Below are positions 3,620 to 34,179 of a stretch of DNA of 38,733 bases, piece by piece. This DNA comes from Candidatus Woesearchaeota archaeon (GTDB lineage: Archaea > Nanobdellota > Nanobdellia > Woesearchaeales > UBA12501): NCBI GenBank assembly GCA_016177345.1, contig JACOVM010000072.1, positions 1 through 38,733 on the forward strand, written 5' to 3'. The stretch's first letter is position 1. Each line of letters begins with the position of its first letter. A program made the position numbers and the translations under genes. The notes below the pieces were generated by a model that searched no databases, was not told where the DNA came from, and was given only the letters and a program-made list of their open reading frames with translations.

Positions 3620-5770
3620 ATGATCTTTAATGACCGGGAAGGGTATAATTATGGGCATTCTCTCGATCGTGAATATATCGGAAATGCTTCTCCTGAGTTC
3701 GTGAGTGGTTATAACGGTGGCACGACAGACTTGATGCAGCAGCCAATAGGCGAGCCATGGGGGGATAACGCGCTCAAAAAAATGGAAGTCAAGGCAGAGT
3801 TCGGCTCTGGAAAAGAGCCTGGCAGGGCGACACTCACGACTCGCCAAATTGGCCAAACCATTTCTGAAGGCCGCGGGCTTGGAACGTTTATTGAGAGCCT
3901 TCCTGCAGCAATCCGAACTGGCGCGAGCAGCGTCGAGCTTTCACTTAATGCAGGAGAGATGGGCACTGGCCCTGATTTCTACACGAAGGAAAAATTACAG
4001 GAAATCAAGGACATTGCAAAGGCAAACCAAATCGAGCTTGCCTCTGTTCACACGCCTGTTCAAGTTGTTGGAAACATGTCTGGCTTTGACCACCGTTCTG
4101 GATTTAGTGACGAGACACGCCATATTCAAACGAATGAAGTTAAGAAAGCAATCCTGTTTAATGCAGAGACAGCCGAGGGGGGTGCTGTGGTTGTTCATAC
4201 TGGAGAATTTCAGCGAACCATGTTTGACAAGCCATGGGCAAAAGACCAGAAAACTGGGGAATACCTCTTCAAGGCATATGAAGAGGAGCCAGAGAGGTTC
4301 ATTGCTTACATTGTTGACGACAGAACCGGCCAGATCATTAACACGGTAAGGAAGACCCAAGTGGTGTATGAGCCAGTCTATCAAACAGCAAAAGACCTTA
4401 AGATTGTTGGTGAAAAAGACCCATCAGGCCATAGCCTTCATGAAGAGGATTGGGTGGACATTGAGGGGAGGTGGATTGATCCAAAAAATCTTGATCGATT
4501 GTTTGATCGTGTTCCCATCTGGGATCCTGAAAAGACCCAGTTTAAGGTTCAGCAGCTGACATGGGATAATTTTGTCGAGCGCGCCCAACGCTGGAATAAG
4601 CTTCACACAGATGAGATAGCTCGGGATCCAAGCCAAAGAAAGGTTCCTGAAGAAATGTTCATCCAGACCCAATTGGAAAACCGCGAGCTTCAAGCGCGAG
4701 GCTCTTCCTTGTATCACGCAAAATATTATGAGCTGCACAAGGAATCGTACGAAGCATTGAGGGAGGCGCTAAAGCATTATGAAGACTTGGATAAAAGCCT
4801 TCCGGAAGATGAGAAATGGAAGCTGCTTCGCCCCCACCTTCCTGCGCGTATCGGTTCTGATATTGTCCCTCCGAAGATGGTTCCTATCCCGGAGATGATC
4901 AAGCTGGAGCTTCGCCGTTCTCGTGATGAGATGAGGTACACCCATGAGGCCTCTGCTGCTGCTGACGCTCAAGCAGCCCAGACAAGAGAAGACATGAGGC
5001 ATATGGAGGCTGTTGAAAAATATGCGCTTCAGAAGTCAGCAGAATCATACGCCGAAACTGCTCTTTTTGCTTATGATACCACAAAGGCGAGAGGGTTCAA
5101 GCGGCCTATTTTTGTTTCACCAGAGAATATCTTTCCAGAACACGGATATGGCTCTCATCCCGAGGAGCTCCGGGAGCTTGTTGAAGTATCTCGCGAAAAG
5201 ATGGCAGAGCACCTCATGGAAAAAAGGCACATGAGTGAGCACAGGGCTAAAAAAATTGCGGAGCAGCACATTAAGGCAACGCTCGACACTGAGCATATTG
5301 GCATGTGGAAAAAACATTTTCAGCGTCGAGAGGGAGAGGGGGAAGATGCGTTTACTAATCGATTTAATTCCTGGTATCTAGATCAGGTAAAAAAACTGGA
5401 ACGGTCAGGTGTTATTGGCCACCTGCATATCGCTGATGGTTTTGGATATGGTCATGCGAACCTGCCGCCAGGCGCCGGTACCTTTCCTGTTGTTGAAGCA
5501 GTGAATTACCTTAAATCCAAAGGGTATAAAGGGGCTTTCCTGTCAGAAGGTTATGGAGATGCGCCGCGCATTCTCACCCAGGCATGGAAGGCGTTTGGCA
5601 GCCCAATCTATTCTGCTATCGGCCCTATTCGCCCAGCAACGCCGTTGGGCGCAAGATTCAACGATGTACAATATGGATACTTTGGAAGAAATTTCCCTCC
5701 GAACTACATTTTTGGCGCGTATTCTCCATCAAACGAGTGGACCCTGTGGAGCCAGACACCGATGGAATGA
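3620..5770 (+). CDS. xylose-isomerase-like TIM-barrel (sugar phosphate isomerase/epimerase / AP-endonuclease-2 fold) protein with a large internal insertion
   Basis: The N-terminal half-barrel motifs (SSVELSL, ELASVHTP, GGAVVVHTGE) and C-terminal half-barrel motifs (LDTEHIG, IGHLHIADG, GAGTFPVVEAVNYLKSKGYKGAFLSEG) are separated by about 350 aa of charged helical sequence. Confidence 0.7.
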   Translation: MIFNDREGYNYGHSLDREYIGNASPEFVSGYNGGTTDLMQQPIGEPWGDNALKKMEVKAEFGSGKEPGRATLTTRQIGQTISEGRGLGTFIESLPAAIRTGASSVELSLNAGEMGTGPDFYTKEKLQEIKDIAKANQIELASVHTPVQVVGNMSGFDHRSGFSDETRHIQTNEVKKAILFNAETAEGGAVVVHTGEFQRTMFDKPWAKDQKTGEYLFKAYEEEPERFIAYIVDDRTGQIINTVRKTQVVYEPVYQTAKDLKIVGEKDPSGHSLHEEDWVDIEGRWIDPKNLDRLFDRVPIWDPEKTQFKVQQLTWDNFVERAQRWNKLHTDEIARDPSQRKVPEEMFIQTQLENRELQARGSSLYHAKYYELHKESYEALREALKHYEDLDKSLPEDEKWKLLRPHLPARIGSDIVPPKMVPIPEMIKLELRRSRDEMRYTHEASAAADAQAAQTREDMRHMEAVEKYALQKSAESYAETALFAYDTTKARGFKRPIFVSPENIFPEHGYGSHPEELRELVEVSREKMAEHLMEKRHMSEHRAKKIAEQHIKATLDTEHIGMWKKHFQRREGEGEDAFTNRFNSWYLDQVKKLERSGVIGHLHIADGFGYGHANLPPGAGTFPVVEAVNYLKSKGYKGAFLSEGYGDAPRILTQAWKAFGSPIYSAIGPIRPATPLGARFNDVQYGYFGRNFPPNYIFGAYSPSNEWTLWSQTPME

Positions 5771-8192: not shown

Positions 8193-9035
8193 GTGTGGTG
8201 TATGTTTCTCATGCCGACCTATCGCTATCCGCTGCTGTATGGGGACACGAATCTTCAAGATGTCTTTACCTATCTTACCGTCTCATTTGAGGCTCTTTTT
8301 GTGCTGGAAGGAATAAAACCAGGCATCAGAATTTCTGTTCCGGAACATCGCTTATATGATGTTAAAGCATTCTGCCAAGCTCATGGCTTGGTGATGGATG
8401 TGTCAGAGTTTAAGGTTGTAAACTCTATAACTGGGGACAAGCAATTTGCGAATCTTGGGTATCGCATCAGAGCAGATTCTTCAATAAAGGGTGACGTTTT
8501 TGCTTATCTTTCCTTGCATGCTGATTGGGTGAGGGCTGCAAAAGAGGCTGATGCAGGAAATGATCATCGAATGTTTGGCATCGAGCTTGGCTATCCGTCC
8601 TGTTGTGTGTCATTCTACGAACGCCATGCACGGGAGGAAATGAAGAAAGAAAATGATTATATCTTGCCTCTGCTGAGAAACTCGGCATCCTTCTTTTTTG
8701 AAAATAATATTATCCCCCGGTATTTTGACATTGGGGTACTAAGCCATTTTCCCTGTTCTTTCGGCTGCAAGGAATCGAGGGATATGGCGCGGCAGCTTCT
8801 TGCTATTGTTGCCAGGTATTCTGAAGGGCTTGCCTCTTATGTGGCAGGAATTCTAAGAATACCTGTGGTGATGACGGAGCATGATGGGGCCCATCTTCTC
8901 CACCATTCGCAGGCAGATGGGTACACCATGAGTTATGGTGGCGTCCAAAGCACAGTGGCAAATCGCCTTCATTACGATCTTGAGCGGCAAAAATCCATAC
9001 CTTTAAATAATCCAAATCTTATTCTTTTCTCTTAA
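8193..9035 (+). CDS. Cys-motif protein (GYPxCC ... SHFPCSxxC), paralog 1
   Basis: Contains LGYPSCCVSFY and LSHFPCSFGCKES motifs and is alignable over most of its length to 9345..10319. The real start is more likely ATG 8202 or 8211, since AATATTAATAA lies about 25-30 nt upstream of 8211. The motif recalls the archaeal DUF483-type pattern, but that is from memory and unverified. Confidence 0.7.
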   Translation: MWCMFLMPTYRYPLLYGDTNLQDVFTYLTVSFEALFVLEGIKPGIRISVPEHRLYDVKAFCQAHGLVMDVSEFKVVNSITGDKQFANLGYRIRADSSIKGDVFAYLSLHADWVRAAKEADAGNDHRMFGIELGYPSCCVSFYERHAREEMKKENDYILPLLRNSASFFFENNIIPRYFDIGVLSHFPCSFGCKESRDMARQLLAIVARYSEGLASYVAGILRIPVVMTEHDGAHLLHHSQADGYTMSYGGVQSTVANRLHYDLERQKSIPLNNPNLILFS

Positions 9036-9344: not shown

Positions 9345-10319
9345 ATGTATCGTGCTCTGCAGCGTTCTGTTGCTTCAGCGATATCATCAAGGGTGGCATC
9401 GTCAGAACGTGTGCCTGATGTTTCATCATTGCAGGCTGTTCCTCAGACTATTCCTTTGCTGGAGACTGCACCACTGCAAATCCTTTATCATAATCAAAAT
9501 CTTTTTCACACTTTTCTTGAAATCAACGATGCTCTTGAGGTATTGTTTGTCTTAGAAGGGTTAAGGCCTGCGTGCAGGCAGCTTGTTCATGAGGATGATG
9601 TCCATCGTGTTGTTGGATTTTGTGAATCCTCTGGTCTTCATTGGGAATTGTCTGATTTCAAAATCCTCAAAGACCAAGAGCTTCTTGTTGTGCCGGAATA
9701 CCCGGGCGACAGCCACTATTTTGTTTATTTATCAAGAAACAAGGAGGTATGCCAGCTTGCTAAGTTCTATGAGGCAACAAGAAATGATGCCCTGTTCGGT
9801 GAAGTATTGGGATACCCTCAATGCTGTGTTCGCTTTTATATCAGCAACTATGCCAGGGCAGCGAAGCTTCGGGATGATTATACCTTAATGAGCATTGCTA
9901 ATACTCATTTTCAGCCAAGCTTTGTAACCAATAATATGGCAAGGTTTTTTTCTGTTTCCCTCATTAGCCACTTTCCCTGTTCGTACAACTGTCCAGAAAC
10001 AGAAAAGATGGGCAGTGCGTTTTTTGAGTGCCTAACAGCGCATAACTCTTCGCTTGCAGAGTATGTCAAAGAGGTTCTTCAAGGGCCGGTGATCAGCCAT
10101 GCATCAACAGGGGTTCATCTTTTGAAGGGAGCGAAGGCTGTTGGAAGCACGATCTGGTACAAGGAGCCGTGGCTGACATCGCCAAACGAGATGCATGCCA
10201 CACTGCGCTTGTGCAACAATATAAAGTATCTTGGAAGAAACCATATCCAGCTCTGCCAGGATGGCCATGTTGTTGAAGATGTTTCTGGAGATCATGTCGG
10301 GTTTGTGATGTTTGAGTGA
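9345..10319 (+). CDS. Cys-motif protein (GYPxCC ... SHFPCSxxC), paralog 2
   Basis: Contains LGYPQCCVRFY and ISHFPCSYNCPET motifs. GAGGTGAGGT lies immediately upstream of the ATG. It is a tandem paralog of 8193..9035. Confidence 0.75.
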   Translation: MYRALQRSVASAISSRVASSERVPDVSSLQAVPQTIPLLETAPLQILYHNQNLFHTFLEINDALEVLFVLEGLRPACRQLVHEDDVHRVVGFCESSGLHWELSDFKILKDQELLVVPEYPGDSHYFVYLSRNKEVCQLAKFYEATRNDALFGEVLGYPQCCVRFYISNYARAAKLRDDYTLMSIANTHFQPSFVTNNMARFFSVSLISHFPCSYNCPETEKMGSAFFECLTAHNSSLAEYVKEVLQGPVISHASTGVHLLKGAKAVGSTIWYKEPWLTSPNEMHATLRLCNNIKYLGRNHIQLCQDGHVVEDVSGDHVGFVMFE

Positions 10320-10427
10320 TCGGGGAATTTTAATTTTCTAATATTTTTAGGATATTTTCGGAAAATATCTTATTTCTTGGAATAACTTGGATTAGGCCCG
10401 TACTTTTCTCCACATTCTTTGAAAGCC

Positions 10428-10458
10428 TTCCAACTTTTGTTGGGCAGAACATATAAAT
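10428..10458 (+). promoter_or_regulatory. duplicated promoter block, copy 1 (TATA CATATAAA)
   Basis: CTTCCAACTTTTGTTGGGCAGAACATATAAA, with the first ATG (10481) 23 nt after its end. It is near-identical to 10938-10968. Confidence 0.55.
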
Positions 10459-10480
10459 GGCATATCTTGTTTTTTTTCTT

Positions 10481-10693
10481 ATGGAGATTCAGTATACAAC
10501 TCATGCTAAAGAGCAGTTGATGGCAAGAAAAATAATGGAAGTCTGGATTGAGGAAACGATCAAATACCCAACGTACGCTGTACACATTGGCTACAAATAC
10601 TATGCGATCAGAAAACTGAATGGTTTCACGCTCAAAGTCGTTTACACAAAAGAAAACTATATAAAGGTCATCACTGCCTATTTTATATCATGA
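10481..10693 (+). CDS. DUF4258-family putative toxin
   Basis: MEIQYTTHAKEQLMARKI...IKVITAYFIS fits the DUF4258 pattern (HAxxxMxxRxI ... hVITxY). The start is chosen from the promoter spacing, whereas the ORF track begins at 10457. It overlaps the next gene by 4 nt. Confidence 0.7.
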   Translation: MEIQYTTHAKEQLMARKIMEVWIEETIKYPTYAVHIGYKYYAIRKLNGFTLKVVYTKENYIKVITAYFIS

Positions 10694-12630: not shown

Positions 12631-12746
12631 ATTCAGGGCGCCGCCATGGTTTACGTTGAAAGCTCTCTTTTTCTCCCCACCCTGCCCGGGCGAGGTGGGG
12701 AGAAAAAGAGACCTAAACTTTGTTTAAGCACAGCGGCGCCCTGAAT
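12631..12746. repeat. intergenic compound hairpin (outer 14-bp GC stem, ~20-nt symmetric internal loop, perfect 17-bp polypyrimidine/polypurine stem)
   Basis: Outer stem: ATTCAGGGCGCCGC 12631-12644 pairs with GCGGCGCCCTGAAT 12733-12746. Inner stem: CTCTTTTTCTCCCCACC 12665-12681 pairs with GGTGGGGAGAAAAAGAG 12694-12710, with a 12-nt loop. Confidence 0.7.
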
Positions 12747-24893: not shown

Positions 24894-24996
24894 GCGTAAA
24901 CGCACAGCAATTACAATGCGATTCCTTTTTTCTTGCTCCATACTTATCGAGGAGCAAGAAAAAAGGACTGGTTGTTCATTTCAATAGCGTTTACGC
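24894..24996. repeat. intergenic compound hairpin with the same architecture as 12631..12746
   Basis: Outer stem: GCGTAAACGC 24894-24903 pairs with GCGTTTACGC 24987-24996. There are 19-nt internal loops on both sides. Inner stem (perfect 17 bp): TCCTTTTTTCTTGCTCC 24923-24939 pairs with GGAGCAAGAAAAAAGGA 24951-24967, with an 11-nt loop. Confidence 0.7.
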
Positions 24997-26796: not shown

Positions 26797-27048
26797 TCAC
26801 AATCCAAGCCTCTTTCGTGCCTCTGATTCGGTTAGAAACTTTCCCTTTTTTATTCTTTCCCTTGCTTTTTCAATAGCTTGGATTGTTTCCTGGCTGAGTT
26901 CAGGTTCAGCTTTGCAAGTTTTAGCTATAAATACCACTTTTTTAATTACTTCATCATAGCTCTCATTCTTATATTCCCTAAATTGGTCTAAGTCTCGCTT
27001 TGTATTTTCATGGATTTTTAGAGTAGTTATCACATCCATTCTCATCAC
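26797..27048 (-). CDS. putative cognate antitoxin
   Basis: 83-aa ORF immediately upstream of the RelE-like gene on the same strand. It is small and charged, with the typical TA gene order. The family is not identified. Confidence 0.6.
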   Translation of the reverse strand: MMRMDVITTLKIHENTKRDLDQFREYKNESYDEVIKKVVFIAKTCKAEPELSQETIQAIEKARERIKKGKFLTESEARKRLGL

Positions 27049-27105
27049 CGTTTACTTAGGTATACTAAAGTATATTTAAATGTTTCGTCGTTATGCCGGA
27101 TTGGT

Positions 27106-28050
27106 TCAGCTCGGCCCATTCGTCACAACATATTCCCTCATTCTCTTGCGGAGGATACTAAATGAACGTTCGCTTTGCTCTTTTCTGTCACCGCGCTCGT
27201 GCTTGCGGTACTCGAAAGGCCCGTGCCTTATCATATCAGACGTGCTTCTTCCAAGCCAGTACATGTTCCATTGTTCTCGTTCAGGCCGAGGATCCTGGAA
27301 GAAGAGCTGGATTGGATTGGTGTCCAGCGCGTCCATAATCCATGCATTGTATGGTTCAAGATCTTGAGAGACAAGAAGCTGGTATGCCACAGTAAGTAAA
27401 TTGCAGATATCGGGATCTGCGCTGACAATTCGCACTGGCCGTCGTGGAAAATGAATTGCAGCAAATACTGCATCGGTAACAAGGCGTTCATCTGCTTCTG
27501 GTTCAGCATAAAAGACAGGCGGTTGCGCCTCATCAGGCCTTACTTTCTTGACTCGGCCTTTGTATTCTATCTTGACGATAAGGCGGTGTAGTTCTTTATG
27601 TTGCTGCTGGAGTTCTGGTGTACTTCCAGGGCGAAATTCAGCCGCACTTAAGTACATGGAAAGCAGTTGTCGGTACCATGCCTTAAGTGCAGTTTCTTCG
27701 TCGAGAGAATGATCTGGCGGTATGCCGAGCCTGTTGACTTTATCAACGTCAAGCTGAGTTAGTTTTTCGCTGAGCACGAGGTCTGCTCTTGTCAATTCAT
27801 GGGCAACTCCGCTGCTGATCAGCACGTGAGGGTGTGAGAGTACTTGTTCAAGAGCACCATTGAGCTGGAGAAGAGCGGAGATATCATCGCGAAGAAGGTC
27901 TCGATAGGATCCTGCAGTTGCTATTCTTTCAGTAAGTTGATAGGGAAGGAAAACATTCGTATCAAGAAACGTCAGGCCTGGATAATCAACAATACGTTCT
28001 AATGGCTGTAGAAGTTCAGCACCAAAAACTGGCTTTATTGCCGTGTCCAT
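27106..28050 (-). CDS. hypothetical protein with PIN-like acidic motifs and a large insertion
   Basis: FLDTNVF (first Asp), GVAHELT (Glu), RLVTDAVFAAI (Asp) and RIVSADPDI (Asp) occur in the PIN order. About 110 aa are inserted between the second and third elements. This is pattern-level only. Confidence 0.6.
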   Translation of the reverse strand: MDTAIKPVFGAELLQPLERIVDYPGLTFLDTNVFLPYQLTERIATAGSYRDLLRDDISALLQLNGALEQVLSHPHVLISSGVAHELTRADLVLSEKLTQLDVDKVNRLGIPPDHSLDEETALKAWYRQLLSMYLSAAEFRPGSTPELQQQHKELHRLIVKIEYKGRVKKVRPDEAQPPVFYAEPEADERLVTDAVFAAIHFPRRPVRIVSADPDICNLLTVAYQLLVSQDLEPYNAWIMDALDTNPIQLFFQDPRPEREQWNMYWLGRSTSDMIRHGPFEYRKHERGDRKEQSERSFSILRKRMREYVVTNGPS

Positions 28051-28228
28051 CTTGTGCGGAGATATTTATGCCTTTTAATGCCTTGCCTTTAGTGTGTGAT
28101 ACGTAGCGGATTCAGGCGCGTCCTGATATTTTAGTTTATTTTATCTATTTTCTAGCCTATCTTACCTGCCTGTCTTCTTGAATTTGATAAGTTGTCCTAT
28201 ATTATATTCCATATAGAAAATAATATTA

Positions 28229-28317
28229 CAAAAAGAAATCCTGACTCTCGACGGAGGCCCTTGTGAGGGTACTTTACCAAGCTTGGCGCTTTGGTGAAGT
28301 ATCAGGATTTCTTTTTG
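28229..28317. repeat. 89-nt compound hairpin at the left edge of the foreign island
   Basis: A perfect 16-bp outer stem: CAAAAAGAAATCCTGA 28229-28244 pairs with TCAGGATTTCTTTTTG 28302-28317. The inner hairpin TACTTTACCAA 28270-28280 pairs with TTGGTGAAGTA 28291-28301, with one T:G on the + strand. Confidence 0.7.
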
Positions 28318-28346
28318 TGGTCATTTCGTCGTAAGGCAGCTCCTTT

Positions 28347-28547
28347 CTAGTGGATGGCGAGGATATCAACCCTCTCAAGGACAAGTTCGTACCCCTGGCG
28401 TCCTTGCTTGATTCCCCTCACCATCCAAGCCCTGTTCGTGCCACTCATCGGAGTCAGGAATTGCTCTACGAACTCCTTGACTGCAGGATGGTGGTCTACT
28501 TCATGCTGGTCTCGAGCAATCGTTCTGCACAGGTCACAAGTGCACAT
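28347..28547 (-). CDS. small hypothetical protein (66 aa, N-terminal CxCxxC)
   Basis: MCTCDLCRTIARDQHEVDHHP.... AGGAG lies upstream of the ATG but only 2 nt away, which is suboptimal spacing. It sits at the distal end of the island. Confidence 0.35.
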   Translation of the reverse strand: MCTCDLCRTIARDQHEVDHHPAVKEFVEQFLTPMSGTNRAWMVRGIKQGRQGYELVLERVDILAIH

Positions 28548-29493
28548 AGCTCCTAGTTCCGTGGGCTTCTACTACGTTGGGCTTCTTTACTTCGCTTGCT
28601 TTCTTGTTTTTCCTTTCGTTCTTGTTCTTTACTGTACATCATCTACTTCAACAAGGTACGGGACCACCGAATGCGTACGCGGTGCGCTTAGGGGGAAAAA
28701 AGTACGCACTCGATGGTCCCGGTTTGGAGGGAACAACACTGTGTCGACAGCGCCATACTAAAGCTGGTGTTTTCTTTAGTTGTCGCACATCTTCACTGGA
28801 ACACCAACATGAGTAATAACTCCCCCATACTCATGGTTCCCTCCTGGCGTTCTGGATATGGTGACCGTTCACGCAATGCAACCCTTCTCCTCGGAGAAAC
28901 AACATCAGGATTACGTGAACGGTCATAAGGCAGCACCTGTTTTTTGGGTTGAACAACGACCAGCATACAGCGGTTGGCTGGACAGGTGCTGCCAACGAGG
29001 CCATCGAACCTGATAAAAGAGCCGCCCCTCCCCCTGGAAAAGATGGCGTTTTATCACCTCTGCTCGATGGCCTCGTAATCTGTTAATCTTCATCTTCTGG
29101 CCTGAGGGGCAACCAAGTCGGCTTTACGGAATTGGTAATGCACCTCGCTTGCTATAGGTTTAGGTTTTATCTTGGTTGCCCTAGGAGACTGCACCTGTCC
29201 AGGAAGATGACCCCCTGTATTCGTCATACCTAGACAGGTGCAGCCTACGAGACCATCGAACCCGCGACCGAAGGGTAGGTTATTGCGCAGGGATACGAGC
29301 TCGATGGCCTCGTAAAGCGGCTGTCCACGGCAAGAGGTGAAGCCCATAGCCTCGAGCACATGGACAGCCGCCGAGCGCTTTCCAAAGGAGACGGCAAGTA
29401 ACCATTGGCGGCGCTCTCTAAGGAAGACAGCAGGTGTTCCTCACTGAGGCTCTGGATTGAGGCCAGCATCATTGAGGGTGATGCCAACAACAC

Positions 29494-29595
29494 CTGCCGC
29501 CAGAGGAGCCCTCGACCTTACGCAGTAAAGCGCAATGCACGTTAATCCCTCGGGAAGATCGGCCGTGCAAGATTGGTCGAGGGCTCATCTGGAGT
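29494..29595. repeat. long hairpin repeat, copy 1 (downstream of the 481-aa ORF)
   Basis: The left arm CTGCCGCCAGAGGAGCCCTCGAC (29494-29516) and right arm TGGTCGAGGGCTCATCTGGAGT (29574-29595) form an 18-bp stem (29500-29517 / 29575-29592) with one G:A mismatch. Confidence 0.8.
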
Positions 29596-29926
29596 TTAGC
29601 ATGTTAGTGGGATGACTGCGGCAGGCACAGGCCAGTGAGCGCCCTCCCAGGACACCGGTTGTCTGTACCTGCCGCAGTCGGGCACAGTCATCATCCACGC
29701 GGGCAAGGGTTGGTGGTGATGACTGCTGGTTGTAGAGGCAAGTGAGGCGCTTGCCGAGAAGCGACAATTTGCTTGGGGCCAAGCCTTTGTCGTCCTGGAA
29801 GCGCCTCACCTGCGGTGCCTGCCGAAACGCATTACGTTCGCGTTTCACTCTTTCGTCTTAAGGGCGCACACCCGTCAGACGACGCATGGCAGGACTTTCA
29901 TGGCAACGCGGCAAGAGTAGGTAGGG

Positions 29927-29994
29927 GCCTCGGGCCACGATCTCATGCTCTTTCTAACTTCTTCTAGAAAGAGAATCAGATCGTGACCCGAGGC
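29927..29994 (-). terminator. long two-tier hairpin just 3' of the 481-aa ORF (terminator or processing candidate)
   Basis: A 17-bp stem (29927-29943 / 29978-29994, one G:U on the minus strand) encloses a 9-bp stem (29948-29956 / 29965-29973). No T-run follows it on the minus strand. Confidence 0.35.
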
Positions 29995-30004
29995 TTGGGG
30001 AGAA

Positions 30005-30016
30005 CTAGCTAGCTAG
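30005..30016. other. CTAGCTAGCTAG block (stop codon in all six frames)
   Basis: Three tandem palindromic CTAG units give TAG in each frame on both strands. The block lies 15 nt downstream of the ORF's own TAG (30034..30032). Confidence 0.9.
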
Positions 30017-30031
30017 CCGATGGTGGGCTGA

Positions 30032-31477
30032 CTAGGCGTTCTGCGGGGCGTGCTGCGCATCCTCGAACTCGAAGCCAGCGGCGAGCTGGAACTGCTCGAC
30101 GGGGATTCCGCGGATCGCGACGATCTGGCCGAAGGCGTTCCGCAGGGCGGCCTGGTCCTCGAGCTGTTCGGCGATCTGGGAGGCCACGCGGCGGACGTAG
30201 GTCTTCGGGTCCGTCACGTTCACCTTCATGATGCCGATGTTGAACGAGTTCAGGGCGACGTTGCGCAGGAAGCGCACGGTGCCGTCCTGTTCGATCTCGT
30301 TCTGCTCGAAGCCCAGCGCCTGGCAGATCTCCTCGACGATCTCCTGCTTGAACGGCGAGATCGCCAGGTGGATCCACTGCACCAGGGAGGCGAAGGCCTG
30401 CTGCTGCTTCCGGAGGTACCGCGGCGAGATCCACTGGCCCAGCAGGTAGATCGCCACGCCGACGTAGCCGTGGTTCTCCTTGCCGAACTGGATGGTCGCC
30501 TTGTTCTGGTCCTTCGTCAGCTCGGCCTTCACAGCGAAGAGGAACTTCTCGTAGCGGCCGTACTTGTCCATCTTCACCGGCGTGCCATCGCTGTCCGTGG
30601 GCTGGAAGCCCGACGGCGTGAGGTAGTCGGTGAAGGGGGTGGGGCTCTTCGTCGTGGCATGCGGCACCTTGAAGCCCAGGCCCTCGAGGCAGCTCTGGAC
30701 CGTGGCGATGGTGCCGGTGTTGCCGTTGAGGAGGACGACGCACGACTGGTCGATGCCGCAGTCGTTCGCCATCCAGCTCAGCGGGTTGTACGGCACGTAC
30801 ACCTCGATGCTGGTGAGCTCGCCGACGTTGTTGAAAGCCGCGAACGGCCGCACGTCGAACTTGCCCAGCTTCGCGTCACGGTAGTAGCCGCCGCTCATCC
30901 CGATGACCTGGGTGAGAAGCTCCCGCATCGCGTTCTGGCTGCCGTTCGTGGCCACGTTGCGCGTCACCGGCTTCTTCTTGCCGTTTGCCAGGTCGGTGGT
31001 CACGACTTCGAGGTGGGGCAGGCCGTCGACCGCGGAGACGAAAGTGGCGTCCTTCCGCTCCTTGGTCGCGGTGATGGTGGTGAGGCCGAGGGACTGGCGA
31101 TCGCCGTAGGTCTTGGACATCGCCTCCTGGATGGCGGTGATGTTGTCGCCGAAGGCCACGATGACACCGTCCTCCGAGGCGATGCTCGCCGGGTGGGGGA
31201 GAACGTTGCCATCCTGGAGGAGCTGCAGGCGGAACTGCTGGTCCGGCGTGAGGCCGTGCGACTTCGGGGGCTGCCGGTTGCCGGTGAAGGCCGCCATGAT
31301 CAGCTCCGAGGTGACCTGCTCTTCGGGGATGCCCAGCTCGCTGGCGATGGCCTGCTTGACGTTCGCATGGATCGTCGCCTTCTGCTGGGGGTTGAAGCCG
31401 TACTGCGTGATGTTGCGGAGGTTGCTCTGGGTACGCATGTAGCGTTTCCTTTCGAACTGCATTTGCTGCTTTTCCAC
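30032..31477 (-). CDS. hypothetical protein, GC3-saturated, family not recognised (start uncertain: GTG 31477, ATG 31462 or ATG 31438)
   Basis: This is the only one of the overlapping long ORFs here whose translation looks like a natural protein (balanced K/N/I/F/Q/D/E). 31 of its last 34 codons end in G or C. The antisense and out-of-frame ORFs are R/L/G/D/A/P-rich, as expected for shadows of a high-GC gene. Confidence 0.75.
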   Translation of the reverse strand: MEKQQMQFERKRYMRTQSNLRNITQYGFNPQQKATIHANVKQAIASELGIPEEQVTSELIMAAFTGNRQPPKSHGLTPDQQFRLQLLQDGNVLPHPASIASEDGVIVAFGDNITAIQEAMSKTYGDRQSLGLTTITATKERKDATFVSAVDGLPHLEVVTTDLANGKKKPVTRNVATNGSQNAMRELLTQVIGMSGGYYRDAKLGKFDVRPFAAFNNVGELTSIEVYVPYNPLSWMANDCGIDQSCVVLLNGNTGTIATVQSCLEGLGFKVPHATTKSPTPFTDYLTPSGFQPTDSDGTPVKMDKYGRYEKFLFAVKAELTKDQNKATIQFGKENHGYVGVAIYLLGQWISPRYLRKQQQAFASLVQWIHLAISPFKQEIVEEICQALGFEQNEIEQDGTVRFLRNVALNSFNIGIMKVNVTDPKTYVRRVASQIAEQLEDQAALRNAFGQIVAIRGIPVEQFQLAAGFEFEDAQHAPQNA

Positions 31478-31591
31478 CGCTAACTTCCAAAGCGGAAGCC
31501 CCTCCTGGATTTAATAGCAGTGGTGGAGACGACAGCTGCGTTTTCACGTCTTTTCACATCAATTCTTGCTTCTTATTCACCTACTGTGCAG

Positions 31592-31675
31592 CTGCCGCCA
31601 GATGAGCCCTCGACACGTTGCTTCCCGGTGCATGGCACTGGTGTGGGGAGAGCTGGTCGAGGGCTCATCTGGAGT
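31592..31675. repeat. long hairpin repeat, copy 2 (upstream of the 481-aa ORF)
   Basis: The left arm CTGCCGCCAGATGAGCCCTCGAC (31592-31614) and right arm TGGTCGAGGGCTCATCTGGAGT (31654-31675) form a perfect 17-bp stem (31598-31614 / 31656-31672). The arms match copy 1, but the loop differs. Confidence 0.8.
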
Positions 31676-31732
31676 GGGCTTCGTGAAGACAGCCCGAGAA
31701 GTACTACGGGGGGAAACTGAGGGGGTTGAGGA

Positions 31733-31930
31733 CTAGGTTGCGGGTTCGCTCTTGTCAGCACTCGTCACCTGGATCACGGTGGGGGTGACGACCTGATCAG
31801 GGCTGGGCGGCCAGGCCTGCGTCGTGGGCTCGAAGCGGGTCTGCCGTGCTTGGGTGCCGAGCGGGTTGGTCAACAAGTTGTTGAGCCACGATCCACTGGG
31901 CTGCTTCTTGTCAGGCGGCCTCGGAAGCAT
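31733..31930 (-). CDS. small Pro/Thr/Gln-rich hypothetical protein (65 aa)
   Basis: ATG 31930 is preceded by AAGGAGG with a 5-nt spacer (ACAAGGAGGTTCTGATG). It overlaps the upstream small ORF by 20 nt. Confidence 0.4.
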   Translation of the reverse strand: MLPRPPDKKQPSGSWLNNLLTNPLGTQARQTRFEPTTQAWPPSPDQVVTPTVIQVTSADKSEPAT

Positions 31931-32123
31931 CAGAACCTCCTTGTTCAGCCTTCTTCGCATTCATTCGCTGCAAAGCGATGGCGAGCTGGTTGAAGCCGCT
32001 GGACTTCGGGGTTGAAGAGGGCGTCTCGGTCACATCCTTGCTTCCGTCGCTTCCCTTGATGCCATCTCTGGATGCGTACTCGGTAGCCATGATGTGAGCG
32101 AATTCATCCGTTCGAACCTTCAC
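31911..32123 (-). CDS. small hypothetical protein (about 70 aa; start uncertain)
   Basis: GTG 32123 is preceded by TAGGAG with a 5-nt spacer. The alternative start is ATG 32090 (MATEYASRDG...). Confidence 0.35.
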   Translation of the reverse strand: MKVRTDEFAHIMATEYASRDGIKGSDGSKDVTETPSSTPKSSGFNQLAIALQRMNAKKAEQGGSDASEAA

Positions 32124-32292
32124 GCGATCTCCTACGAACAATAACAGTTTTACAGTTTTCAACGGAGCCTTACTACAGGGTTTTCCACGGTTCTCCGTCG
32201 TGACCAGTGGAAAAGGGCTTCTTCTCGAGAATACAACCTACATTAAACTACATCGCACTCGTCCTACACGCTATCTGTTTCAGAAAACAGGC

Positions 32293-34179
32293 TTATGAAA
32301 GCGTGCGTCCACGTGTTTCAGGGTTTTCCAAGAGAAGAGCTCCGCTAGGCGTTATGTGAATAATCTTCACCATACCTTTTTCGCTTCGCACTTCTTCTAC
32401 AGAAATTAACCCCAAATCTACCAATGACAGCTTTAGTTCGTTTCCTTTGCGGATTGACAAACAAAGTTGTTTGTAGATTTGCGTGGTGGCTAGATAGCCG
32501 GAATTTTGGCGTAGGGTTGCCAAAAATTCATGTTGTTGGTTGGTTAAGTTGTAGGAAAGGGATATTGGAATGGAGGTATCTTTATCGTTATCATCATCAC
32601 TAGCAACAGCAACATTATCATCATAAGTATTATCATGAACAATGCCTTCTGCGTGCTCTTGAATGTTTCGCAATGTTTCAACGTCATCGTTTGTTGCCAC
32701 TCTGCTGAGCTTGAATACCTTGTCCAGCTTTTCGAGCTGCCGCTGGAGCTTTTCTGTATCGCATGACTCTTGAAAATGCTTAAGCCTGCGATGGTCTTTA
32801 GCCTTTCCTTTCATCAGGGTGGAAAGCGCATCATCAGTGATGATATTCTTCTTGACGTCAATAAACGGTGCCTTGATGAGGAAAGGATTGTAGAATCGCT
32901 CTGCTAATTTTACAATTGCGCTGCCGACCGGGAGCATGGAGAAGTATTTTCGCTGCTCGCGCATTTGCATGAGGTTGGAGACACATTCTACATCTGCTGG
33001 AAGGATCTGCTGGAAAGCTATGTTGCAGGCAGAATTTCCGGCAACCGTGTCGCTGAGCTTAGAAATGTGCTGGTCGAGGCAGATTAAGCTAACGCCATAT
33101 TCCCGGATTTCCCGGTAAATCATATCGGTGATGCTTTCGGTGAGGAAGTTTGGCTTTTCTTTGAGAAAAATGTTGTGGGCCTCGTCAACAATGATGGCGA
33201 GCCTAAACTTGTTGCTTTCGTAGTTGTTTGCTTTCATCAGCTTGTACAGGTAGGTCAGGAAGAAGCTGGTGAAGAATTTTTTCTCGCTCGTGCCAAGATT
33301 ATGGAGTTCAAAGACCACTTGCTTATCCATAATCTCTTCAACAGTGTACGCGTCTTCTCCCTTGTAATTGATCGCCTCACCGAAGTCTCCATAGGTAAGG
33401 GAGGAGGCGATTCGAAGAGCGCTTTCAAGCCATTCTGATTCTCGGCCATGGCGCCGCGCACTCATATCTGCTTCATAATCTTCAAGGCGATCTTTGACTT
33501 GGTGCCAGGTTGGATAATTCTCGCTGCCTTCATAGACGCCAAAGTCCTTAAATGCCCTATCGAGTGTTTCGCGCAGCAGCTTATGGACGCCGAAGCTTGC
33601 AAAGAATGCGTCATTGATCAGATCGCACAAAATGTTAATCCATTCCTTCGCCCCAATATTTTTTGGTGGGCGATTAATGTTGAGCTTGAAGTGGTTGCTG
33701 ACTCGTTCGTTGCCGACAGTAAAGCAGTGAACGCTTTTGTCTTTATTCATGAGCTGGCGAAAGCTTTTCTTCCAATCAAATGCGATGAAAGGCTTTCTCT
33801 TCATGACAAAATTGCCGAGAAGATGGAATGCAAAGGTTGTTTTTCCGCTGCCGCTCATGCCAGAGATGCAGACGTGTCTTGGCCAGTCATTTTCCCGCAG
33901 CCCAAATTCATACAGGTTTGTTTTGGCGTACAAGATCGTGCCGAGAGGATATTCTCCTGCCACGACACCTTGCCTTGGTGGCTCAAGCATGATGTCCTCA
34001 TCAGAAAGAAGGCCTTTGTTGAGGTACTTGTGGTAGAGGGAATGAAGCGCTTGCTCAATTTCGATCTTGCTCTCCACTGAATCAGCAAGGCGGTACTTGA
34101 GATAGATCTGGTCGATTTTCTCGCCGAAGACTGGCTTCAGCTTCTTGCAGACTTCCTCGGTAGTGAGCGCACGTTCCAT
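32293..34179 (-). CDS. HerA/FtsK-superfamily (DUF87-like) P-loop ATPase with a C-terminal winged-helix-like domain
   Basis: Walker A is ISGMSGSGKTT and Walker B is RLAIIVDEAHN, followed by LICLDQH. The last ~90 aa (EFLATLRQNSGYLATTQIYKQL...) look wHTH-like. Confidence 0.8.
   Translation of the reverse strand: MERALTTEEVCKKLKPVFGEKIDQIYLKYRLADSVESKIEIEQALHSLYHKYLNKGLLSDEDIMLEPPRQGVVAGEYPLGTILYAKTNLYEFGLRENDWPRHVCISGMSGSGKTTFAFHLLGNFVMKRKPFIAFDWKKSFRQLMNKDKSVHCFTVGNERVSNHFKLNINRPPKNIGAKEWINILCDLINDAFFASFGVHKLLRETLDRAFKDFGVYEGSENYPTWHQVKDRLEDYEADMSARRHGRESEWLESALRIASSLTYGDFGEAINYKGEDAYTVEEIMDKQVVFELHNLGTSEKKFFTSFFLTYLYKLMKANNYESNKFRLAIIVDEAHNIFLKEKPNFLTESITDMIYREIREYGVSLICLDQHISKLSDTVAGNSACNIAFQQILPADVECVSNLMQMREQRKYFSMLPVGSAIVKLAERFYNPFLIKAPFIDVKKNIITDDALSTLMKGKAKDHRRLKHFQESCDTEKLQRQLEKLDKVFKLSRVATNDDVETLRNIQEHAEGIVHDNTYDDNVAVASDDDNDKDTSIPISLSYNLTNQQHEFLATLRQNSGYLATTQIYKQLCLSIRKGNELKLSLVDLGLISVEEVRSEKGMVKIIHITPSGALLLENPETRGRTLS

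Follow-up and report, generated by a model that had tools for sequence, protein, structure and literature searches.

Hairpin modules around a G+C-rich orphan gene of a Woesearchaeota archaeon: a probable family of locus-specific RNA structures

In this study, we analyzed two long hairpins, H1 and H2, that lie on either side of an orphan gene (here called gene X) in a 38,733-nucleotide (nt) stretch of DNA from Candidatus Woesearchaeota archaeon (GenBank assembly GCA_016177345.1, contig JACOVM010000072.1), the whole of which is referred to below as the window. Our results indicate that H1 and H2 are probably members of a family of RNA-structure modules specific to this locus, with stems that would act in cis on the sense transcript of gene X and with tandem copies of the gene's leader downstream of it, the role of the stems being proposed from sequence comparisons. 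A new family of locus-specific structured RNA modules is the best-supported interpretation of the locus. Coordinates are those of the window, and the hairpins and genes of the locus are on its minus strand, which is the sense strand of gene X.

A first-pass annotation of the window had described H1 and H2 as homologous hairpins in direct orientation with matching arms, and the window sequence bears this out. The left arms (29491–29516 and 31589–31614) are alike at 24 of 26 positions with an offset of 2098 bp, and the right arms (29574–29595 and 31654–31675) at 22 of 22 with an offset of 2080 bp; the spacing of exactly 2098 bp that had been given for both copies holds for the left arms and not for the right ones, because the two loops differ in length. 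H2 (31598–31672) folds into a perfect 17-bp stem with a 41-nt loop and H1 (29500–29592) into an 18-bp stem with one mismatch (U/C), no bulges and a 57-nt loop, in line with the 17–18 bp stems and unrelated loop sequences described before. The two stems are identical at 46 of 48 arm positions, while the remainder of the two units has diverged. Four occurrences of the 17-nt arm sequence, with up to three mismatches allowed, are found in the window against a chance expectation of 0.07 (a count of four was reached by 0 of 100 shuffles), and the folding z-scores of each hairpin, on either strand, range from −4.1 to −5.7. Two Logan assemblies, each from another sequencing run, are 100% identical to the window, L080 over 30024–32315 and L083 over 26863–31238. 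As these jointly span both hairpins, the locus is genuine and not an assembly artefact.

What had been presented as a pair of boundaries proved to be of another nature: H2 is the first helix of a three-hairpin leader ahead of gene X, and H1 is the first helix of a tandem array behind the gene. Both hairpins exist, but a count of two was incomplete. By aligning successive minus-strand pieces of ~250 nt beyond H1, we identified a family (hairpin A) of at least five members, all in direct orientation and on the strand of the gene, namely H2, H1, H0b in the second array unit (29246–29314), H0a in the third (28995–29076; a stem of 13–15 bp and a 56-nt loop) and a more diverged copy, Hn (28659–28721; 20 bp, core CCAUCGA/UCGGUGG). 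All five copies have a common core, CC(C/A)U(C/U)GA paired with UC(G/A)A(G/U)GG, and their loops (41, 57, 31, 56 and 23 nt) are unrelated in sequence. A second hairpin, B, with a 5′ strand of GGCNGCA(S)(S)UG, directly follows hairpin A in four of the five copies, and a third hairpin follows B in the H2, H1 and 28995 units. Hairpin B of the H1 unit (29426–29501; GGCGGCAGGUGUU and AACACCUGCUGUC) shows compensated changes when set against its counterpart in the H2 unit; hairpin B of the second unit is at 29187–29245, and the third unit has a B hairpin with a perfect 12-bp stem (28929–28993) and a third hairpin with a 16-bp stem (28862–28925).

Read along the minus strand, the locus consists of the leader of the H2 unit, gene X, three 3′ hairpins, the H1 unit, two further units, a diverged unit and an AT-rich hairpin with a T-run. 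The 2-kb stretch between gene X and the next gene (28050–30031) is a chain of long hairpins without a credible open reading frame (ORF). Its first member is a 30-bp hairpin, 90% complementary, located 37 nt past the stop codon of X (29927–29994), the first arm of which is conserved in contig L063, and the two further 3′ hairpins (29738–29813 and 29614–29679, a span of 29614–29813) lie inside a 107-nt duplication. The AT-rich hairpin at the far end (28228–28318) has a perfect 17-bp stem, is followed by the T-rich run on the minus strand and lies where the G+C-rich array gives way to the A/T-rich promoter region of the gene that follows; possibly, hairpin and T-rich run together form the end of a transcription unit. 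The array was also considered as coding sequence, and this was set aside: the small ORFs within it (29090–29359, 29245–29493 and 28354–28761) gave no family matches, and the second array unit, translated by hand in the frame of ORF 29090–29359, is interrupted by stop codons. No further copies of the family were found elsewhere in the window by a mismatch search or by a short-loop covariance model (R1), the latter being weak evidence as R1 recovered four of the five known copies only weakly and missed H1. A search for the stem-core hairpin pattern in metagenomes of the Joint Genome Institute (JGI) returned 11 loci, ten of which are unrelated G+C-rich palindromes and one of which (L069) is the H2 of the relative represented by contigs L065 and L066.

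Successive array units start at intervals of 252 and 261 nt, which is about the length of the leader from H2 to the start codon of X (ATG 31438). This agreement between unit period and leader length would be expected if the array consisted of non-functional relics, that is, of a leader duplicated in tandem by slippage, with palindromes kept complementary by template switching (quasi-palindrome correction) and not by selection. That the array has been seen in one genome only, and that other long perfect hairpins occur at gene ends in this genome, also fits with such an origin. However, the units are only about half identical outside the stems and yet each has retained two or three helices, and template switching yields perfect Watson–Crick arms whereas the helices here contain 12 G·U cells confined to one strand. 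In addition, the leader copy is conserved and compensated across lineages. On balance we regard an array of relics as unlikely.

The conservation of the leader was determined from related contigs. The leader is ~235 nt long and comprises hairpin A (H2), hairpin B (31528–31599; sense strands GGCGGCAGCUGC and GCAGCUGUCGUC, with G·U pairs on the sense strand) and hairpin C (31474–31526; outer stem CCACC/GGUGG, inner stem CUUCC/GGAAG), after which come GAAAGGAAAC and ATG 31438. The H2 stem is 100% identical in L065, L066 and L069, which differ from it by four changes in the loop; the arms, for which the first-pass annotation had considered that they might be unique to this contig and lack conservation in homologous loci, are hence conserved as far as H2 is concerned, and for H1 an orthologue is unavailable. 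At ~82% nucleotide identity between the window and L065/L066, neither the A nor the B stem has changed; the substitutions are in loops, and one pair of hairpin C is compensated (U:A to C:G). Contig L064 has a homologue of H2 at 9738–9827 with compensatory changes, its A stem differing from H2 by two fully compensated pairs and one pair that is lost on both sides, and it retains the 3′ flank GGCRGCAGCUGC after hairpin A. Compensatory changes in hairpin C were seen in both L066 and L064. RNAalifold, applied to a MAFFT alignment of the leader orthologues from the window, L066 and L064 and thus independent of any alignment made by hand, predicted three hairpins, in which 14 pairs are compensated. 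The genes on either side of H2 are co-oriented, with a small ORF ending 58 nt before it and the start of X ~160 nt after it, and L064 has the same order as the window (ATPase gene, small ORFs, hairpin, X). In these comparisons the leader appears to have the properties of a generic structured mRNA leader, in that it is on the sense strand, lies between the upstream cistron and the start codon and has pairing that is kept by compensation in orthologues.

Conservation was found at the other end of the gene as well. The window and L063, whose X proteins have 25% identity, agree at ~75% of positions over the first 64 nt past the stop codon of X, a stretch in which the 30-bp 3′ hairpin starts. Judged from such alignments, the untranslated regions of X are more conserved than its protein.

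The copies within the window provided a second line of evidence for pairing. As MAFFT did not align the loops of whole units reliably, the stems were pulled out by hand to give an ungapped alignment (A7), which covers stems A and B from all five copies in the window and from the L064 orthologue. In this alignment 93.4% of the cells are standard pairs, compared with 30–47% when the 3′ partners were slid by 1–3 columns, and 14 of 27 pairs are altered on both sides, compared with a mean of 8.0 in shuffles; the covariation score is 0.52 against 0.23 in shuffles. None of 500 shuffles reached the observed values on four of the five measures used (cells paired, pairs and cells changed on both sides, and covariation score). 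The copies differ within a single genome and co-vary arm against arm, and therefore the constraint on them is base pairing and not one duplex-DNA sequence. These results support the conclusion that the base pairing of the hairpins is under selection. They also bear on the idea that the hairpins are inverted-repeat sites in double-stranded DNA for a dimeric regulator of gene X. The arms are palindromic and have cores such as TCGA and CAGCTG/CACCTG, as would suit such a regulator, but sites of one protein should keep their sequence, whereas the copies here differ and co-vary, and the arms are 41–57 bp apart with no fixed spacing, so that we consider a regulator of this kind very improbable.

The evidence on strand leans towards the stems acting on the minus (sense) strand. 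The A and B helices contain 12 G·U cells and no internal A·C cells on that strand, and the folding energy of the 971-nt array is −441 kcal/mol for the minus and −411 kcal/mol for the plus strand, both values being ~9–11 standard deviations below shuffles; the minus strand folds better in four of the five units. On strand evidence, RNA and single-stranded DNA of the same strand are inseparable. RNA is preferred because H2 sits between co-oriented genes within a contiguous leader.

Several of our observations weigh against stems that work as local structures in the mRNA of gene X. Alignment A7 was anchored by hand on the stems and is thus biased towards structure. The leader itself folds equally on both strands (−101 on the minus and −103 on the plus strand), and G·T pairs would be tolerable in single-stranded DNA of the same strand too. 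The A/T-richer loop of hairpin B contains the motif GAATAAGA, which is conserved in L064; if this candidate promoter is used, hairpin A would be placed outside the mRNA of X. The downstream array is known from one genome, the other public contigs stopping inside or next to X. Lastly, local-hairpin function alone leaves unexplained why the stems of H1 and H2 are nearly identical amid diverged units.

Such near-identity is unlikely to stem from gene conversion, which would have had to act on two 25-nt patches separately, with an unrelated loop between them. A shared constraint is more plausible, either through a common factor or through mutual pairing of H1 and H2. The latter would be possible in two ways, as a 17-bp duplex of H2's 3′ arm with H1's 5′ arm and as an 18-bp duplex, with one mismatch, of H2's 5′ arm with H1's 3′ arm. 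Potentially, then, the arms of H2 and H1 close the X cistron into a panhandle that is excised, circularised or translated as a closed loop. The cross-pairings are as good as the local stems, and a need for mutual complementarity among all four arms would explain, as gene conversion would not, why the stems are near-identical amid diverged loops, B stems and units; the H2 stem is also invariant between the window and L065/L066. Against this, local hairpins form first during transcription and without the cost of a 2-kb loop, the stems of the other three family members differ and so cannot join in, and there is no H1 orthologue in which H1 and H2 could be seen to co-vary. Archaeal processing stems, with which the first-pass annotation had compared the hairpins, are resembled to the extent that the arms can cross-pair over 17 bp; the bulge-helix-bulge that defines such stems (two 3-nt bulges on opposite strands, separated by a 4-bp helix), or any other bulge, is absent from the local stems and from the H1×H2 cross duplexes, which are continuous helices. 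Taken together, we judge long-range pairing to be of low probability.

The first-pass annotation had also raised attC-like cassette boundaries and the ends of IS200/IS605 or rolling-circle elements, which would make the hairpins single-stranded DNA recombination sites of a mobile or exchangeable cassette with gene X as its cargo. Conserved stems with free 41–57 nt loops in direct orientation, around one gene of foreign-looking composition, would fit with this, as would the mosaic structure of X between close relatives (see below), in which the first ~75 codons are kept and the rest is replaced or diverged, and integrons occur in GTDB Nanoarchaeota (PMC9668308). Of the attC traits, a conserved stem with a loop variable in length and sequence is indeed seen, and is the only one that fits. 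At the outer stem ends, H1 and H2 have CCAGATG...CATCTGG and the remaining copies have TTACGAG...CTCGTAG/CTCGTTG; none of these sequences contains the integron core sites RYYYAAC (R″) or GTTRRRY (R′), and no unpaired central spacer or extrahelical bases interrupt the perfect stem of H2 or the bulge-free stem of H1. As had been noted before, canonical motifs are not evident here, neither the attC boxes nor the bulge-helix-bulge. The array units, ~250 nt apart, are non-coding and carry no cassette ORFs, and hairpins A, B and C adjoin one another within a single leader. Scans of the ~30 larger ORFs of the window against Pfam, PHROG, NCBIfam and PADLOC gave no match to a tyrosine recombinase or integrase, a Y1/HUH transposase, TnpB or a rolling-circle Rep; the gene between the hairpins likewise gave no match to an IS200/IS605 protein, and within the window copies of the hairpins were found at this locus only. 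The flanks (ACT...CGG) show no target-site duplication, and with neither dispersed copies nor shared internal sequence the hairpins do not resemble a miniature inverted-repeat transposable element (MITE). There are no tRNA genes in the window and so no tRNA integration site. The arm search that had been recommended, made with the 17-nt arm across 185,579 species genomes, returned 62 single loci scattered over unrelated taxa, none with both arms, a chance-like result. The order of ATPase gene, small ORFs, hairpin and X is shared by three lineages, with synteny seen in L064, L065 and L066. We therefore think a mobile cassette quite unlikely.

No Rfam family matched anywhere in the window at the gathering score, and at E ≤ 5 there were generic weak matches only, mostly to models of microRNA-precursor hairpins. 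The lack of a mobile-element protein, a tRNA or an Rfam family at the locus was counted in support of an RNA role as opposed to a mobile cassette. In the cis-acting RNA structure that we favor, the module would consist of hairpin A, then hairpin B and usually a third hairpin, functioning as secondary structure of the minus-strand transcript. H2 would open the ~235-nt leader of X, and H1 would open an array with a ~250-nt period, made up of three to four old, diverged leader copies and placed after X's own 3′ hairpins. The stems could protect or define the ends of the transcript, with a 5′ stem-loop acting against 5′–3′ exonucleases and 3′ stems against the exosome. Alternatively, they could bind one common factor. 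In this view, the array behind the gene would serve as a lengthy structured extension of the 3′ end or as a non-coding RNA of its own that shares the factor. The near-total use of G and C at the synonymous sites of X may serve the same strategy, a very stable, structured and A/U-poor mRNA.

Gene X (30032–31438) lies between the hairpins, as the first-pass annotation had it, but its likely start is ATG 31438, giving 468 residues and not the 481 of ORF 31477..30032; this start is preceded by GAAAGGAAAC and is the one used by public gene calls and by the L066 orthologue. The G+C content of X is 0.60, 0.39 and 0.955 at the first, second and third codon positions, respectively, in an organism of ~45% G+C and next to genes whose third-position content (GC3) is ~0.42. 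Codon choice is correspondingly strict, with ATC used for 28 of 28, AAG for 24 of 24, CAG for 37 of 37 and AAC for 26 of 26 of the respective residues, and with no AGA or AGG codon for arginine and no TTA or TTG codon for leucine. Genes for X are known in four lineages (the window, L063 at 101–1369, L064 at 10001–10683 and L066 at 4949–5518), and in all of them GC3 is 0.91–0.955 with ordinary values at the first and second positions, compared with a GC3 of 0.42–0.75 in other genes. The bias could have arisen through selection for a message that is stable and poor in A and U, through biased gene conversion at a locus prone to recombination or through adaptation to a foreign translation system. 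An ORF of 477 residues on the plus strand (30050–31483) was rejected as a gene, being a by-product of the codon bias of X: it is open because G or C at nearly every third position bars stop codons in the antisense frame.

Relatives of the X protein are scarce. It matched no family in Pfam, PHROG, NCBIfam or PADLOC, nothing among PDB sequences below E = 0.25, and nothing in phage and plasmid collections searched by tblastn. An exhaustive HMMER search of 1.84 billion representative proteins identified only two distant homologues, P0002 (27% identity) and P0003 (37% identity), and beyond these two no more were obtained by a word-indexed search, the exhaustive search, a profile search or pattern scans of metagenomes and IMG/VR. 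Structure prediction with AlphaFold2 on three-sequence alignments gave mean confidence (pLDDT) values of 35.6 and 36.2 in two attempts.

Partial copies of X are present in the close relatives L065 and L066, and comparison with these revealed a mosaic. The ATPases of the window and L066 are 94% identical, and the first 40 codons of X are near-identical, with 32 of 33 identical residues having the same codon; past approximately codon 80, amino-acid identity falls to ~40%. Similarly, an identity of ~90–100% to L065/L066 across 31320–31950 takes in the second small ORF, the leader and X up to about codon 75. This pattern suggests allelic replacement or diversifying selection. All other public contigs with X or its leader (L063, L064, L065, L066, L069 and L080) end inside X or within a few nucleotides of it, which may be due to strain-level hypervariability or to graph branching at the locus. 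A short GCTAGCTAGCTAG repeat lies just past the stop codon of X (29996–30031), and the Logan contig L080 ends 8 nt after the stop.

A more speculative reading would take the X unit itself as a cargo: a transcript or single strand armoured at both ends with stem-loops, recoded to the codon usage of a G+C-rich organism and passed by the HerA/VirB4/CedB-like translocating ATPase, whose gene is just upstream, to the partner cell of this DPANN episymbiont. The recoding (CGC/CGG for arginine, CUG/CUC for leucine, GGC for glycine and no AGR or UUR codons) would then serve expression in that partner cell. Such a transfer would at once account for a GC3 that is both extreme and conserved, for a protein that evolves fast and for terminal structures that change less than this protein, but we hold it to be highly improbable.

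The window is of archaeal origin, and its genes include PTH2, two DUF483 proteins, a MiaB-like radical-SAM enzyme and a Na/Ca exchanger. The conserved upstream neighbor of the leader and X is a HerA/VirB4/CedB-like ATPase (32293–34179), a core Woesearchaeota gene with hundreds of homologues of >48% identity, the named ones of which are labelled Woesearchaeota or Nanoarchaeota; this places the organism among the DPANN archaea. Between it and the leader are two small overlapping ORFs of 83 and ~64 residues (31733–32162), the first of which is conserved in L064. No X-like gene was found at the ATPase loci of three more distant Woesearchaeota (L068, L081 and L082). In L082 (9700–11789) the ATPase gene is followed by type IV pilin-like genes (N_methyl, PilX_N), and in L068 and L081 by unrelated genes; the conserved ATPase may belong to a surface-filament or DNA-transfer apparatus. 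Directly downstream of the array is an ORF of 314 residues (27106–28050, minus strand) without a family match, whose N-terminal FLDTNVF and later SADPD motifs recall PIN-domain nucleases. The two DUF483-like genes (8193–9035 and 9345–10319) are adjoining paralogues. Other very stable hairpins, unrelated in sequence, occur between genes at 12631–12746 and 24923–24967, one being nested (21 + 27 bp) and the other a perfect 17 bp flanked by convergent genes. It may be that this genome commonly places long hairpins at the ends of its genes.

To our knowledge, long structured leaders are rare in archaea, and we know of no RNA-level control in DPANN archaea. The locus represents a compact case in which a three-hairpin leader kept by compensation, tandem copies behind the gene, a fast-evolving orphan and synonymous sites that are nearly all G or C in four lineages occur together. 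If the stems stabilise or process the message, this would be a clear archaeal example of an armoured mRNA, and if the identical stems of H1 and H2 pair with each other, it would be a new way to close or excise a protein-coding cistron. More generally, our results illustrate that hairpins noticed as a pair around a gene can belong to a larger repeat family and do not always indicate a mobile cassette.

The locus can be compared with several known systems. IS200/IS605 elements and their palindrome-associated (PATE) and MITE derivatives, which are known in archaea, likewise have direct-orientation hairpins near the ends of a short gene-bearing segment. Their left and right ends are distinct, whereas the stems of H1 and H2 are near-identical, and here TnpA and TnpB were not detected, no dispersed copies were found in the window and the locus is syntenic in relatives. 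Archaeal rRNA and tRNA stems that are cut at bulge-helix-bulge motifs yield circular intermediates, and the likeness to these is that segments flanking an RNA could close a stem, as the 3′ arm of H2 and the 5′ arm of H1 could over 17 bp; in contrast to them, the segments here are primarily the arms of local hairpins, with no 3-nt bulges and no 4-bp central helix. Compared with the attC sites and cassette arrays of integrons (PMC9668308), the locus is without R″/R′ sites, spacer, extrahelical bases, IntI and cassette ORFs, and its hairpin is syntenic in position and joined to further leader helices.

A further parallel is provided by bacterial mRNAs. Stem-loops stabilise bacterial messages in the 5′ leader of ompA, in the leaders of S-layer genes and as repetitive extragenic palindromic (REP) hairpins between cistrons. 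The module differs from these in its host, which is an archaeon, in its ~235-nt leader of three hairpins that is copied three to four times in tandem behind the gene, and in having two copies that share one stem, and any stabilising role that it may have is proposed by analogy. Like them, it has long, stable stems on the sense strand, just upstream and downstream of one cistron, that are kept by compensation.

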